Shown one piece after another: positions 7,956-53,851 of a stretch of 64,000 nt of DNA. The stretch's first letter is position 1, and the number at the start of each line of letters is the position of its first letter. The DNA lies in NCBI RefSeq assembly GCF_056746865.1, contig NZ_CM163382.1. The stretch is one strand, 5' to 3'. Position numbers and translations under genes: made by a program. Below the pieces are notes generated by a model. It had not been told where the DNA came from. It ran no database searches and saw only the letters and a list, made by a program, of their open reading frames with translations.

Positions 7956-8032
<77 letters not shown>

Positions 8033-8064
8033 TCACCGTACTGCTTTATTTCATCAAATTTGAT

Positions 8065-8141
<77 letters not shown>

Positions 8142-8174
8142 TCACCGTACTGCTTTACTTCATCAAATTTTAAT

Positions 8175-8251
<77 letters not shown>

Positions 8252-28015: not shown

Positions 28016-29380
28016 TTACGTGCAGATTTCGTAGCAAGGGATGTAGGCTGAGCCTGGCAACTTCATACGATGCTGGGCAACAAAACCCTGTAGCAGGTCA
28101 TCCATACGACGCATAATCTCTTTATCGCCGTTGATTTTATAAGGACCAAACTCTTCAATGGCGCGAATACCGACTTCTTTTACGTTACCCGCCACAATAC
28201 CGGAGAACGCACGGCGCAGGTCGGCAGCCAGCACTTCAACGGGTTGATCCGGGTAAAGCTTCAGATTAGCCATATTCTCGTGAGACGGCTCAAACGGCAT
28301 TTGCAAATCTGGCGCAATGCGCATTGACCAGTTAAAGCTGTAGGCATCGCCTGTGTCGCGGCGATTTTCTTTCACCAGCGGCATCGATTTTTTCATCTGA
28401 CGAGCGACTTCAGCGGCGTCATCAATGATGATGCGGTAATGGCGGCGCGCGTTTTCACCCAACGTATGCACGACAAACTCGTCCAGTACGCGGAAGTAGT
28501 CGGCGCTCTCTTTCGGGCCGGTGAGGATCAATGGTAAAACCTGATCTTTGTTGGCCGGGTTCATTAAAATTCCCAGCAAATACAGCAACTCTTCTGCCGT
28601 ACCCACACCGCCAGGGAAGATAATGATACCGTGAGCGATACGGACAAACGCTTCCAGACGTTTTTCGATATCCGGCATGATGATCAATTCGTTGACCAGC
28701 GGGTTAGGCGGTTCAGCGGCGATAATCGACGGCTCTGTCATACCAATAAAACGACTGTCTTTGTAACGCTGCTGTGCGTGTCCGACCGCAGCGCCTTTCA
28801 TCGGCGCTTCCATCGCTCCCGGACCACAGCCGGTGCAGATATTCAGCTCACGCAGGCCCAGCTGATTCCCTACGCGACGGGCATACAAATACTCGTTTTC
28901 GTTAATTGAGTGCCCGCCCCAGCAGACCACCATATTTGGCGCTTCACCAACATGCAGCGCGCGAGCGTTACGCAAGATGGAAAAGACCAGGTTAGTGATG
29001 TGGACGGAGTTGTCGAGATTCAGGTTGGGAAAACGAACGGTGTTATGGATTTGCCCGTAAACGAAGAGAATGTCACGCAGAACCGCGAACAAGTTGGCCT
29101 GCAAAGCGCGAATAATTCGCCCATCGACAAAAGCCTCTTCCGGGGGATTAATCAGTTCCAGCTTTACGCCGCGTTCACGGCGCAGGACGTTAATATCGAA
29201 ATTTTCAAAACGAGACAGCAATTCTTTGCTGTTATCGGTCAAACTACCGGAGTTCAGTACGGCAAGTGAACAGTTGCGAAACAGTTGATAGAGGTCGCTG
29301 CTGGCGGTGCGTTTAAGCATATCCACTTCCAGCTGCGACAACATATCCATGGAGCCAAGCGGGCTAATATGTGTAATCAA
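28016..29380 (-). CDS. ppnN: Nucleotide 5'-monophosphate nucleosidase PpnN (LOG family; formerly YgdH)
   Basis: 454-aa ORF with LOG-type PGGxGTxEE motif ([10 protein letters not shown]). Confidence 0.9.
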
Positions 29381-30407: not shown

Positions 30408-30953
30408 GTGGACGATTTGACCGCACAAGCCCTGAAAGATTTTACTGCACGCTACTGCGATGCGTGGCATGAAGAGCATAAAAGCTGGCCGTTGAGTGAG
30501 GAACTGTACGGCGTTCCTTCACCGTGCATTATTTCAACCACCGAAGACGCCGTATACTGGCAACCCCAGCCGTTTACCGGGGAACAAAATGTAAACGCGG
30601 TTGAACGCGCTTTTGATATTGTGATACAACCCACAATTCATACCTTTTATACGACTCAGTTTGCCGGGGATATGCACGCGCAGTTTGGCGATATTAAACT
30701 GACATTGCTGCAAACCTGGAGTGAAGACGACTTCCGTCGGGTGCAGGAAAATCTGATTGGTCATCTGGTGACTCAGAAAAGGCTAAAATTGCCGCCCACG
30801 CTATTTATCGCGACGCTGGAAGAAGAGTTAGAGGTGATCTCGGTGTGTAATCTCTCCGGTGAAGTGTGTAAAGAGACGCTGGGAACACGTAAACGGGCGC
30901 ATTTAGCCTCAAATCTTGCGGAATTCCTTAATCAACTTAAGCCTCTTCTGTAA
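30408..30953 (+). CDS. syd: SecY-interacting protein Syd
   Basis: 181-aa ORF. Confidence 0.9.
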
Positions 30954-30972
30954 TCCAAATACCCCATTTGGT

Positions 30973-30990
30973 TGTGAGAGATCTCTTACA
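30973..30990. promoter_or_regulatory. UvrY (BarA/UvrY two-component) binding box upstream of csrB
   Basis: Perfect 18-bp palindrome TGTGAGAGATCTCTTACA about 175 bp upstream of the csrB 5' end. Confidence 0.6.
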
Positions 30991-31163
30991 GACTCTGTAG
31001 GAGATCGCCAGGAAATAAGCGAATACTTAAAAAGATAAGAATCGTTATTTTCATTTAAAATCAATATATTGCTTGTTAATCCTTAACTTTCATATGAAAT
31101 TTTCCTTAAGGCATTGTCTGTAAGCGCCTTGTAAGACTTCGCGAAAAAGACGATTCTATCTTC

Positions 31164-31530
31164 GTCGACAGGGAGTCAGACAACGAAGTGAACATCAGGA
31201 TGATGACACTTCTGAAGGACACACCAGGATGGTGTTTCAGGGAAAGGCTTCTGGATGAAGCGAAGAGGATGACGCAGGACGCGTTAAAGGACACCTCCAG
31301 GATGGAGAATGAGAACCGGTCAGGATGATTCGGTGGGTCAGGAAGGCCAGGGACACTTCAGGATGAAGTATCACATCGGGGTGGTGTGAGCAGGAAGCAA
31401 TAGTTCAGGATGAACGATTGGCCGCAAGGCCAGAGGAAAAGTTGTCAAGGATGAGCAGGGAGCAACAAAAGTAGCTGGAATGCTGCGAAACGAACCGGGA
31501 GCACTGTGAATACAGTGCTCCCTTTTTTTA
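31164..31530 (+). ncRNA. csrB: CsrB sRNA (CsrA-sequestering RNA)
   Basis: Begins GTCGACAGGGAGTCAGACAACGAAGTGAACATCAGGATGATG; many CAGGAUG/AGGA-type CsrA-binding motifs throughout; ends with a rho-independent terminator. Confidence 0.9.
31497..31529 (+). terminator. csrB rho-independent terminator
   Basis: gggagcactg-tgaata-cagtgctccc hairpin followed by TTTTTTT. Confidence 0.85.
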
Positions 31531-31574
31531 TTCCTGCTATTCTTCGCGGCAGTTTTTCTTATTGAGGTTGCTTT

Positions 31575-31904
31575 ATGACCACTCATGACCGCGTTCGTCT
31601 CCAGTTGCAGGCGCTTGAAGCGTTACTGCGTGAACATCAGCACTGGCGAAACGATGAACCCCAGCCGCATCAATTTAATAGTACCCAACCGTTCTTTATG
31701 GACACCATGGAACCACTGGAGTGGTTGCAGTGGGTGCTGATCCCGCGAATGCACGATTTGTTAGAAAACAACCAGCCGTTACCGGGCGCTTTTGCCGTTG
31801 CTCCCTATTATGAAATGGCGCTGGCGACGGACCACCCGCAACGCGCGCTTATTCTGGCTGAGCTGGAAAAACTGGATGCTCTTTTTGCGGATGATGCGAG
31901 CTAA
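31575..31904 (+). CDS. yqcC: DUF446 family protein
   Basis: 109-aa ORF; stop overlaps the truC start. Confidence 0.85.
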   Translation: MTTHDRVRLQLQALEALLREHQHWRNDEPQPHQFNSTQPFFMDTMEPLEWLQWVLIPRMHDLLENNQPLPGAFAVAPYYEMALATDHPQRALILAELEKLDALFADDAS

Positions 31905-32686
31905 TGCTGGAAATACTCTATCAGGATGAATGGCTGGTTGCGGTAAATAAACCCTCCGGCTGGCTGGTTCACCGCAGCTGGCTGGATCGCGACGAGAAAG
32001 TAGTGGTCATGCAAACCGTGCGTGACCAGATAGGCCAGCATGTGTTTACTGCTCATCGTCTGGACCGACCAACTTCTGGTGTGTTGTTGATGGGATTATC
32101 CAGCGAGGCCGGACGGCTGCTGGCACAACAGTTTGAACAGCACCAAATCCAGAAACGTTACCATGCGATTGTGCGCGGCTGGTTGATGGAAGAAGCAGTT
32201 CTGGATTATCCACTGGTGGAAGAACTGGACAAAATCGCTGATAAATTTGCCCGCGAAGATAAAGGCCCACAGCCAGCAGTGACGCATTATCGCGGTCTGG
32301 CGACCGTAGAAATGCCGGTAGCGACCGGACGTTACCCGACCACGCGCTACGGCCTGGTGGAACTGGAGCCGAAAACCGGACGCAAGCACCAGCTCCGTCG
32401 CCATCTTGCCCATTTGCGCCACCCGATTATTGGCGACAGCAAACATGGTGATTTACGCCAGAATCGCAGCGGTGCTGAACATTTTGGCCTTCAGCGGTTA
32501 ATGTTGCATGCCAGTCAGTTGTCATTGACGCATCCTTTTACTGGCGAGCCGCTGACTATTCACGCGGGCCTGGACGACACCTGGATGCAGGCGTTATCAC
32601 AATTTGGCTGGCGCGGTCTGCTTCCTGAAAATGAAAGGGTTGAGTTCAGTGCGCCATCGGGTCAGGATGGAGAGATAAGTTCCTAA
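31904..32686 (+). CDS. truC: tRNA pseudouridine(65) synthase
   Basis: 260-aa ORF, RluA-family pseudouridine synthase. Confidence 0.9.
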
Positions 32687-32703
32687 TCCAGGGAGAAAAC
32701 GGT

Positions 32704-33153
32704 ATGGCGGAAATTGGTATTTTTGTCGGCACCATGTACGGAAATTCGCTGTTAGTGGCGGAAGAAGCAGAAGCAATTCTGACCGCACAGGGCCACAAAG
32801 CAACGGTATTTGAAGATCCTGAATTAAGCGACTGGCTGCCCTATCAGGATAAGTATGTTCTGGTGGTTACGTCCACGACCGGGCAGGGCGACCTTCCTGA
32901 TAGCATTGTGCCGCTCTTTCAGGGAATCAAAGATACCCTGGGCTTCCAGCCGAATCTGCGTTATGGCGTGATTGCGCTCGGCGACAGTAGTTATGTGAAT
33001 TTCTGCAATGGCGGCAAACAGTTCGATGCCTTGTTGCAGGAACAGAGCGCTCAGCGAGTGGGAGAAATGCTGTTGATTGACGCCAGTGAGAACCCGGAAC
33101 CGGAAACGGAATCAAATCCGTGGGTCGAACATTGGGGCACGCTGTTGTCCTGA
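32704..33153 (+). CDS. yqcA: Flavodoxin-like protein
   Basis: 149-aa ORF with flavodoxin motif TSTTGQG. Confidence 0.9.
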
Positions 33154-33162
33154 TACGTTCAG

Positions 33163-33228
33163 CGAGCGGTAAATGCCGTTTTAGCGGTGTAAATGCCGTT
33201 TTAGCGGTGTAAATGCCGTTTTAGCGGT
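33163..33228. repeat. Tandem direct repeat, 20-bp unit gtaaatgccgttttagcggt, 3 full copies plus a partial
   Basis: Exact copies at 33169-33188, 33189-33208 and 33209-33228, preceded by a partial agcggt. Confidence 0.85.
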
Positions 33229-33627
33229 GCTGAATCGAATCTTTTCAGGCAAATGCCAGTAAAAACTGCTTCATAGCGCGGATTTTTACTGGCGTTTGCC
33301 TGGAGTCAAGCGATCCATTTCATACTCTTCTTTATTTCTTCGTTTTAACCCTTCCTTTCTTGTTCTTGTTTTCATTTCCGTGAAGTGGATTCCACCGTCC
33401 AGGGCTAATGCCAAAATTGGGCCTCATTGAACGCATTAATGTTGTGTTGTTGCACGGTGAGCCGCTATGGCGCGCTTTTTATACTGCTATTGCCAGATAT
33501 AAACACGCGCCGTATTCGGCGAACGACCTATAAAAACGGCAAAAAACACCCTACGTCACCTCTGATTTCCTGGCGATGTCGCAGTCCAGAGTGAGCGTGG
33601 CTAACGCGAATTTTCAGGAGTGCAACA

Positions 33628-34980
33628 ATGAGTTCTTTAAGTCAGGCTGCGAGCAGTGTGGAAAAACGCACGAATGCTCGTTACTGGATAGTGGTGATGT
33701 TGTTTATCGTCACATCCTTCAACTACGGCGACCGCGCTACGCTTTCTATTGCCGGTTCGGAAATGGCCAAAGATATCGGCCTTGATCCCGTGGGAATGGG
33801 CTATGTGTTCTCTGCCTTCTCATGGGCTTATGTTATCGGGCAGATCCCTGGTGGTTGGTTGCTGGATCGTTTTGGTTCAAAACGCGTCTACTTCTGGTCG
33901 ATCTTTATCTGGTCGATGTTTACCTTGCTGCAAGGCTTCGTCGATATCTTTAGTGGATTCGGCATTATCGTTGCCCTGTTTACGCTGCGCTTCCTGGTCG
34001 GGCTTGCTGAAGCGCCATCTTTCCCCGGCAACAGTCGCATTGTTGCGGCCTGGTTTCCGGCGCAGGAAAGGGGAACGGCGGTGTCGATTTTTAACTCCGC
34101 TCAATACTTCGCAACGGTGATCTTCGCGCCGATTATGGGCTGGCTGACGCATGAAGTGGGCTGGTCACACGTCTTCTTCTTTATGGGCGGTCTGGGGATT
34201 GTCATCAGCTTTATCTGGTTGAAAGTCATCCACGAGCCAAATCAACATCCGGGGGTAAATCAGAAAGAGCTGGAGTACATCGCCGCGGGTGGCGCGCTGA
34301 TCAATATGGATCAGCAAAACACCAAAGTTAAAGTGCCGTTCAGCGTGAAGTGGGGGCAGATCAAACAACTGCTCGGGTCACGGATGATGATCGGCGTTTA
34401 TATCGGTCAGTACTGTATCAACGCCCTGACTTACTTCTTTATTACCTGGTTCCCGGTTTATCTGGTGCAGGCGCGTGGGATGTCGATTCTGAAAGCGGGC
34501 TTTGTGGCTTCCGTTCCGGCGGTTTGCGGTTTTATCGGCGGTGTGCTGGGTGGGATTATTTCCGACTGGCTGATGCGCCGCACGGGATCGCTGAACATTG
34601 CGCGTAAAACACCGATCGTAATGGGCATGTTGCTGTCGATGGTGATGGTGTTCTGCAACTACGTCAACGTTGAGTGGATGATCATCGGCTTTATGGCGCT
34701 GGCCTTCTTCGGTAAGGGCATCGGGGCGCTGGGTTGGGCAGTAATGGCAGATACCGCGCCAAAAGAGATCAGCGGTCTTTCCGGTGGCCTGTTCAACATG
34801 TTCGGTAACATTTCTGGCATCGTCACGCCAATCGCAATTGGTTATATCGTTGGCACGACTGGCTCCTTTAATGGGGCGCTGATTTATGTTGGTGTTCATG
34901 CCTTAATCGCGGTACTGAGCTACCTGGTGCTGGTGGGCGATATCAAGCGTATCGAGCTGAAACCTGTCGCGGGGCAATAA
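33628..34980 (+). CDS. gudP: Glucarate/galactarate transporter (MFS)
   Basis: 450-aa polytopic membrane ORF. Confidence 0.9.
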
Positions 34981-44347: not shown

Positions 44348-44405
44348 GATATCTTTTACTCGAAGGTATTACACCTGACAGACCCGCAATTTTCAGGACA
44401 TTCTA

Positions 44406-45197
44406 ATGAATCAAATCGACCGTTTGCTCACTATTATGCAGCGCCTGCGCGATCCGGAAAACGGCTGCCCGTGGGATAAAGAGCAGACATTTGCCACCAT
44501 TGCGCCTTACACCCTTGAAGAAACCTACGAGGTGCTGGACGCCATCGCCCGTGAAGATTTTGACGATCTTCGCGGTGAACTGGGCGATCTGCTGTTCCAG
44601 GTGGTGTTTTACGCACAAATGGCTCAGGAAGAAGGGCGCTTTGACTTTAATGATATATGCGCCGCGATCAGCGATAAATTAGAACGTCGCCATCCGCATG
44701 TTTTTGCTGACAGTTCTGCCGAAAATAGTAGTGAAGTGCTTGCCCGTTGGGAGCAAATCAAAACCGAAGAGCGCGCGCAGAAAGCGCAGCATTCGGCGCT
44801 GGACGATATTCCTCGTAGTTTACCGGCTTTAATGCGTGCGCAAAAAATCCAGAAACGTTGCGCCAACGTTGGTTTTGACTGGACGACGCTTGGTCCGGTA
44901 GTCGATAAAGTCTACGAAGAGATCGACGAGGTGATGTACGAGGCACGGCAGGCTGTTATCGACCAGGCTAAACTGGAGGAGGAAATGGGCGACCTGCTGT
45001 TTGCCACGGTCAATCTGGCTCGTCATTTAGGGACAAAAGCGGAAATCGCATTGCAAAAAGCGAACGAAAAATTCGAGCGTCGTTTTCGCGAAGTGGAGCG
45101 TATTGTTGCCGCGCGTGGACTGGAAATGACAGGTGTTGACCTCGAAACAATGGAAGAAGTCTGGCAACAGGTAAAACGGCAGGAAATTGATCTCTAA
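44406..45197 (+). CDS. mazG: Nucleoside triphosphate pyrophosphohydrolase MazG
   Basis: 263-aa ORF with tandem MazG domains; lies directly after relA with no mazE/mazF between. Confidence 0.9.
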   Translation: MNQIDRLLTIMQRLRDPENGCPWDKEQTFATIAPYTLEETYEVLDAIAREDFDDLRGELGDLLFQVVFYAQMAQEEGRFDFNDICAAISDKLERRHPHVFADSSAENSSEVLARWEQIKTEERAQKAQHSALDDIPRSLPALMRAQKIQKRCANVGFDWTTLGPVVDKVYEEIDEVMYEARQAVIDQAKLEEEMGDLLFATVNLARHLGTKAEIALQKANEKFERRFREVERIVAARGLEMTGVDLETMEEVWQQVKRQEIDL

Positions 45198-53273: not shown

Positions 53274-53851
53274 GAGTTCCCCGCGCCAGCGGGGATAAAC
53301 CGTCTGGGCCGGATTCGATCCCGCGCGTACCGGAGAGTTCCCCGCGCCAGCGGGGATAAACCGTACAATCCCGCATCGAAACTGAATACCCCGATGAGTT
53401 CCCCGCGCCAGCGGGGATAAACCGTTGCCCAGGCTTTTGCGAAAATTTGTGATTTGGAGTTCCCCGCGCCAGCGGGGATAAACCGACACGGGGCAGATTG
53501 AGCAGGACTGCGACCTCGAGTTCCCCGCGCCAGCGGGGATAAACCGGCAGCAGATTTACAAACAGATCGGAGATTACTGAGTTCCCCGCGCCAGCGGGGA
53601 TAAACCGCGCGGCCTGCGCTCGCGTAAAATCAGTTGCAGGAGTTCCCCGCGCCAGCGGGGATAAACCGTCCGCGCAAGCCTATATAAACCAGATTGATCA
53701 GAGTTCCCCGCGCCAGCGGGGATAAACCGCGAAATCGCACGCGCTTCCCGCATGGGGGAAAGAGTTCCCCGCGCCAGCGGGGATAAACCGTGTAAAAGTC
53801 TTGGTTTTGGCGCATCATTTGTGAGTTCCCCGCGCCAGCGGGGATAAACCA
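53274..53851 (+). CRISPR. Type I-E CRISPR array: 10 repeats of 29 bp (GAGTTCCCCGCGCCAGCGGGGATAAACCG) and 9 spacers of 32 bp; the last repeat is degenerate at its 3' end
   Basis: Exact 61-bp periodicity; repeats start at 53274, 53335, 53396, 53457, 53518, 53579, 53640, 53701, 53762, 53823; no cas genes in the window. Confidence 0.95.

Follow-up and report, generated by a model that had tools for sequence, protein, structure and literature searches.

Between yqcA, which encodes a flavodoxin, and gudP, the gene of a glucarate/galactarate transporter and the first of gudPXD, the 64,000-nt stretch of E. coli DNA analysed here (the window; contig NZ_CM163382.1 of RefSeq assembly GCF_056746865.1) carries a 20-bp unit, GTAAATGCCGTTTTAGCGGT, three times in direct tandem with zero mismatches (33169-33228; Table 1). 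The array starts 16 nt 3′ of the yqcA stop codon and lies 400 nt 5′ of the gudP start codon, and its placement downstream of yqcA and upstream of gudP, as given in the original prediction, is confirmed by the ORFs and by the RefSeq gene names on identical sequence. The MG1655 record contains no annotated feature between the two genes. Upstream of yqcC-truC-yqcA lies the gene of the CsrB small RNA (31173-31532; full-length Rfam match of 382.9 bits), which was the sole hit in an Rfam scan of positions 30500-34500 (E ≤ 1); that is, neither the array nor the spacer had a match. A coding role for the array is implausible, since a 20-bp period is not divisible by 3.

Tandem Repeats Finder (TRF) reported a period of 20 with 3.0 copies, 100% matches and a score of 122 at 33169-33229, and a separate repeat search recovered the same units in register. 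The exact unit had three matches in the window versus 0.01 in shuffled sequence (100 shuffles, 3 mismatches allowed). The three perfect tandem copies claimed at the outset are thus real, and so is the end of the interval proposed for them (33163-33228); the array itself, though, begins six bases later than that interval. The additional partial copy mentioned with it comes down to one extra G at 33229 and the hexamer AGCGGT just upstream, and nothing longer was found. Perfect repeats of this kind had been described as uncommon in E. coli intergenic DNA, which is consistent with the TRF results for this window: no further array with at least three perfect copies was detected besides a tRNA-Met triplet and a CRISPR array. 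The former (7956-8251, minus strand) is a tandem set of three tRNA-Met (CAT) genes and corresponds to a TRF repeat with a 109-bp period. The latter is a CRISPR-like array with a period of 61 (53518-53731; repeat GAGTTCCCCGCGCCAGCGGGGATAAACCG), and genomes whose flanks, as far as compared, do not differ from those of the window carry a RefSeq CRISPR direct_repeat feature at the corresponding position. The only other near-match to the unit in the window is a 17/20 match within ppnN (28285-28304, minus strand; GCAAATGCCGTTTGAGCCGT, which includes GCAAATGC). Although rarer than chance expectation, this match is in frame within the coding sequence, does not extend past 11 exact bases, and was set aside as a coincidence.

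Table 1. Positions of the array and of neighbouring features in the window
Feature	Position	Strand	Basis
yqcA (flavodoxin) coding sequence	32704-33153	+	ORF; RefSeq annotation of identical or near-identical sequence
AGCGGT, direct repeat of the last six bases of the unit, 2 nt out of register	33165-33170	+	Sequence
Unit 1, GTAAATGCCGTTTTAGCGGT; counterpart of the single ancestral copy that every E. coli genome has	33169-33188	+	Repeat searches, allele alignment
Unit 2, identical to unit 1; junction 12-mer GGTGTAAATGCC at 33186-33197	33189-33208	+	Repeat searches, box scoring
Unit 3 plus one extra G; junction 12-mer at 33206-33217	33209-33229	+	Repeat searches, box scoring
CTGAATCG, first bases of the cross-genus module	33230-33237	+	Conservation
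20-nt inverted repeat, CAGGCAAATGCCAGTAAAAA / TTTTTACTGGCGTTTGCCTG	33246-33302	+	Fold, conservation, pair counting
Box 1, GGCAAATGCC	33248-33257	+	Within the inverted repeat
Short stem-loop (33266-33281) and T-run (33283-33287)	33266-33287	+	Enclosed by boxes 1 and 2
Box 2, GGCGTTTGCC, inverted	33291-33300	+	Within the inverted repeat
GTCAAGCGA, end of the conserved module	33305-33313	+	Conservation
GGCTAATGCC, third box-like element, closer to the gudP promoter	33403-33412	+	Enterobacter counterpart GGGCTTATGCC
AATGTTGTGTTGTTGCACGGTGAG, most widely conserved 24-mer of the spacer	33438-33461	+	Cross-genus alignment
gudP (glucarate/galactarate transporter) coding sequence, first gene of gudPXD	33628-34980	+	ORF, RefSeq annotation

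Copy number and haplotype of the array

A 351-bp region of the locus was present in 5,425 of the 5,426 complete E. coli genomes, with a median of one place per genome, and a dispersed repeat (REP/BIME, ERIC and similar) was rejected on that ground. A single copy of the unit was carried by 5,255 genomes, while 68 had two copies, 83 had three, 15 had four, 3 had five and 1 had six. A two-unit probe, which is unable to match a single copy, identified the 170 genomes with at least two copies, and full coverage of a three-unit probe identified the 102 with at least three. Alleles of four, five and six copies were counted from the match spans in the records. These spans took the place of the ‘80% coverage’ counts for the four-copy and five-copy queries, which were discarded as unusable because overlapping pieces had been joined. 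In total the two-unit probe matched 296 places, with a maximum of 5 per genome, consistent with the allele counts. The length of the yqcA-gudP spacer follows the same steps (434 bp in K-12, then 454, 474 in the window, 494, 514 in strain SCU-313 and 534 in strain 51489), and the five- and six-copy alleles were verified by their spacer lengths against the 434 bp of K-12. Alignment revealed that the alleles differ solely by whole perfect units. K-12 and most E. coli carry a variant single copy, GTAAATGTCG, with a T at unit position 8, and the exact 59-mer with the C allele occurs in at most 552 genomes, the 170 multi-copy ones among them.

To look at the surroundings of the alleles, 20 kb on either side of the locus from 11 genomes were compared with the window, and SNPs were counted over a 22-kb flank, excluding the repeat. 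The window (three copies), SCU-313 (five copies) and 51489 (six copies) had 0 SNPs in this flank, 2017C-4173W12 (four copies) had 1, and S1-ISR-02-A (four copies) had 14. Genomes with different copy numbers may thus be separated by 0-1 flanking SNPs, indicating that copy number changes faster than point mutations accumulate. The locus is therefore not invariant among E. coli genomes, as it ranges from one to six copies and changes between genomes without flanking SNPs, in keeping with the variable-number locus put forward in the original prediction. Over 24 kb around the locus, 51489 and dozens of three-copy genomes are 100.0% identical, and one genome identical over these 24 kb carries the name ‘O15:H18 strain ST69’, a record name that suggests that the window belongs to an ST69-like clone. 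ST69 is a pandemic ExPEC lineage, and both ST69 and strain 042 belong to phylogroup D.

Multi-copy alleles also occur on flanks that are 0.4-1.1% diverged, with two copies in M7424, C4, Ecol_316 and THO-008 and three in strain 042. Around the repeat, 2.2 kb or more is nevertheless the same in all multi-copy genomes examined: the first difference lies 1,359 bp away on the upstream side and 820 bp away on the downstream side. In the closest single-copy genomes, these distances are 98 and 188 bp, respectively. That is, multi-copy alleles are confined to a single haplotype, which ST69-like clones share with strain 042 and relatives. This pattern is as expected if the duplication was founded once and afterwards spread by descent or recombination; together with the copy-number changes on near-identical flanks, it points to a single rare founding event and to frequent slippage thereafter. 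At the borders of the founding duplication, only 1 bp of microhomology (G) is visible. Elsewhere on these chromosomes, relA is directly followed by mazG in 9 of 9 multi-copy genomes with annotated flanks (approximately 44371-44465 in the window), and in the single-copy neighbours elppa9 and strain 405 the two genes are separated by the toxin-antitoxin pair mazE-mazF.

Conserved elements of the yqcA-gudP spacer

The gene order yqcA then gudP is kept across Enterobacteriaceae. (In E. albertii and C. braakii, the 1.5 kb downstream of yqcA had no match to gudP, the gud operon being absent or moved.) The unit sits in approximately 36 nt that can be aligned within Escherichia alone, between the yqcA stop codon and a conserved module; in Citrobacter and Salmonella the unit region is occupied by unrelated sequence with a different hairpin (CCCTCCC...GGGAGGG). 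Cross-genus homology resumes exactly at CTGAATCG, one base past the array, and from there the module reads GGCAnnTGCC, GTAAAA, a stem-loop of variable sequence, TTTTT, GGCrTTT... and finally GTCAAGCGA, so that two GGCAnnTGCC boxes flank a terminator-like stem-loop. The first box is located at roughly constant distance (−371 to −389) from the gudP ATG in Escherichia, Citrobacter, Salmonella, Superficieibacter and one Enterobacteriaceae MAG. No Rfam entry corresponds to the module (33230-33313).

In most genera the stem-loop with its T-run resembles an intrinsic terminator (e.g. CCTTTC-ATTT-GAAAGG-GTTTTT in Citrobacter), and in a few (Phytobacter, Kosakonia) an A-rich run takes the place of the T-run after the stem-loop. 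In E. coli this element (33266-33287) is likely the terminator of yqcA. The whole element is predicted to form a very stable hairpin in E. coli (z of −5.6 to −7.3). RNAalifold gave no consensus structure for the cross-genus module, owing to variable inner stems that do not align in register, and the outer stem was examined by explicit pair counting: across genera, 79% of the cells of the outer inverted repeat were paired, versus 38-48% in slid controls, and one outer-stem pair switches between A-U, C-G and U-A. Such a signature fits either an RNA stem or a symmetric protein site.

Closer to gudP, AATGTTGTGTTGTTGCACGGTGAG is 92-100% identical in Enterobacter, Lelliottia, Leclercia, Citrobacter and other genera, and is probably a core promoter or regulator element of gudP. 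The array is located at least 210 nt upstream of this core, and additional units leave the distance between the conserved gud control elements and gudP unchanged. Over the gudP start codon itself (33620-33628), TTGTTGCAC recurs in inverted form as GTGCAACAA.

Origin and possible effects of the array

Taken together, we consider it quite probable that the array, a VNTR, arose by a rare duplication and subsequent slippage, that it lies in the yqcA 3′ UTR, and that it is most likely without selected function. A single illegitimate tandem duplication in one haplotype would have produced two perfect copies; the resulting 40 bp of perfect tandem homology would then have allowed replication slippage or unequal sister-strand exchange, by which whole units would often be gained and lost, giving rise to two to six copies. 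Slippage, transcription within the 3′ UTR and neutrality are the parts of this scenario that we infer. With the yqcA stop codon before it and the terminator-like stem-loop after it, the array is probably transcribed within the yqcA 3′ UTR. No promoter-like site was found by a scan of the array, nor any terminator-like site on either strand, and an intrinsic terminator within the array was thereby rejected, the terminator-like element being located downstream. The predicted DNA fold of the array is not significantly stable (z of −1.45), for which reason slippage promoted by hairpins was dropped; as the DNA is not unusually structured, plain misalignment of the repeats must be assumed. Three-copy genomes outnumber two-copy genomes (83 versus 68), an excess that could reflect the sampling of clones or selection. 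The array may have a small effect on the control of the glucarate genes.

An array of binding sites for a regulator of the gud operon, the other possibility raised in the original prediction, would make copy number functional. A common regulator was reportedly the topic of a paper by Monterrubio et al. in 2000. CdaR (SdaR) is a PucR-family activator of gudPXD, garD, garPLRK and cdaR (EcoCyc, RefSeq; for its role in the regulon, PMC2996990). No published CdaR motif was found in the literature searched, which took in a minor part of the subscription literature, and the control regions of the regulon were therefore compared directly. The region upstream of cdaR contains TGTGCAAATGCC on the reverse strand, and the divergent garP/garD region contains TGTGCAAATGCT and, inverted approximately 43 bp away, TGTGCATATGCT; in the Salmonella gud region TGTGCATATGCC occurs at the position of E. 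coli box 1. The 12-mer TGTGCAWATGCY is matched at 12/12 upstream of cdaR and twice in the garP/garD region, and is also present in the Salmonella gud region (locations outside the window: approximately 1895-1915 in L100 and 7035-7095 in L088). A 14-mer, CATTGTGCAAATGC, is common to cdaR and gar (shuffle mean of 8.2). The 8-mer GCAWATGC is not enriched window-wide (6 found versus 10.6 expected), so that finding it in each of the three CdaR-linked regions is informative, as a candidate only. From this comparison, TGTGCAWATGCY, which recurs in the cdaR, garP/garD and gud control regions, appears to be a good candidate for the CdaR operator.

When scored against TGTGCAWATGCY, the unit-unit junction GGTGTAAATGCC reaches 10/12, compared with 8/12 for the ancestral first copy, 7/12 for the K-12 single copy and 8-9/12 for the gud boxes of E. 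coli itself, so duplication does yield a better box-like sequence. Approximately 0.5% of random tandem 20-mers score 10/12 (P ~0.005). The junctions could accordingly be read as putative CdaR-like boxes, GTGTAAATGCC, beside the conserved distal pair, with additional copies recruiting or titrating CdaR and so tuning the induction of gudPXD by glucarate according to copy number. Apart from the junction score and the occurrence of the box in the cdaR, garP/garD and Salmonella gud regions, this reading draws on the location of the array 18 bp from a conserved module bearing such boxes, and on the AAATGCC core in each unit (at 33171, 33191 and 33211), which is in 20-bp register with the core of box 1 (33251). 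The link between the box and CdaR derives from the sequence comparison, however, and the junction has its core mismatch in the GCA half-site, at a C that is the same in every good box. Moreover, the unit region aligns within Escherichia only and is absent from other genera, unlike the orthologous gud control regions, whose elements are kept across genera, and 97% of E. coli have one weak copy, in most cases with the T that weakens the match. The similarity of the unit to the garP/garD region (13/20) was equalled by 122 of 200 shuffles; for all 20 rotations of the unit, and likewise for the conserved 24-mer core, similarity to that region was at chance level. Furthermore, the array is upstream of the terminator-like stem-loop and remote from the conserved promoter core, and its 20-bp period is a non-integral number of helical turns. 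On balance we regard CdaR recruitment or titration by the array as unlikely.

Very unlikely, in our estimation, is the population-level form of this idea, in which slippage in ST69 and its relatives would vary the number of the putative boxes GTGTAAATGCC in 20-bp register with the distal pair. Were it true, it would amount to a clone-level, heritable yet reversible tuning of glucarate/galactarate uptake, and any effect of the array on gudP expression would make the locus an uncommon example of regulator-site copy number that varies among members of one clone. The glucarate/galactarate pathway has been reported to be important in the inflamed or antibiotic-treated gut (the topic of PMC11775122).

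An effect at the RNA level would follow from the same position between stop codon and terminator-like stem-loop: the transcribed units would form an extra hairpin that alters the stability, RNase processing or termination of the yqcA mRNA, and hence read-through into gudP. The units can pair via G-U-rich quasi-palindromes, and a long hairpin of their own is predicted within the array. With the same flanks, the predicted minimum free energy is −81.2 kcal/mol for three copies versus −59.4 kcal/mol for one, i.e. three copies add approximately −22 kcal/mol of predicted RNA structure. The predicted terminator hairpin is nevertheless identical with one or three copies, the unit is not conserved beyond Escherichia, and a perfect, recent and unstable array is what drift is expected to produce, so that we assign this mechanism a low probability too. 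Finally, an error of sequencing or assembly, or a coincidence, has a practically negligible probability, since three copies recur in 83 independent complete genomes and multiple copies in 170, the alleles differ by whole units, and shuffling yields almost no matches. Rare duplication followed by slippage is our preferred account of the array.

Comparison with known repeat classes

In a search of the literature that took in a minor part of subscription papers, no paper was found that contained the unit sequence, yqcA together with gudP, or yqcA together with a terminator. A CRISPR was rejected as a class for the array, since the units abut without spacers. Arrays of CdaR operators would resemble the locus in that the junction 12-mer scores 10/12 against the regulon box and conserved boxes adjoin the array; unlike CdaR operators, the array junction is without the invariant C, the unit is not conserved beyond Escherichia, and the candidate box was derived in the present analysis.

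In the contingency loci of Haemophilus and Neisseria, repeats lie within a reading frame or near promoter hexamers, and changes in length switch expression. The array is like these loci in that the length of the tract mutates quickly and reversibly. It differs from them in being located after a stop codon and upstream of a terminator-like hairpin, with no on/off logic apparent, and no promoter-like site was found on the plus strand in or beside it.

Bacterial VNTR or minisatellite loci serve the MLVA typing of E. coli and Shigella. The array shares with these its intergenic location, perfect tandem units, and alleles that change by whole units and vary in number between close strains on unchanged flanks. 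Unlike MLVA VNTRs, it is multi-copy on one haplotype, in approximately 3% of complete genomes, and is monomorphic with one copy elsewhere. As a fast marker it splits genomes that are identical over 22 kb, and it could aid fine tracking within ST69-like clones. It also offers a natural case of frequent slippage after a rare founding duplication, in which the allele spectrum is measurable (68/83/15/3/1 genomes for two to six copies). The conserved module of box, terminator and box and the candidate CdaR box are the more interesting by-products of the analysis; the array itself is a tandem duplication turned VNTR, an ordinary kind of object.
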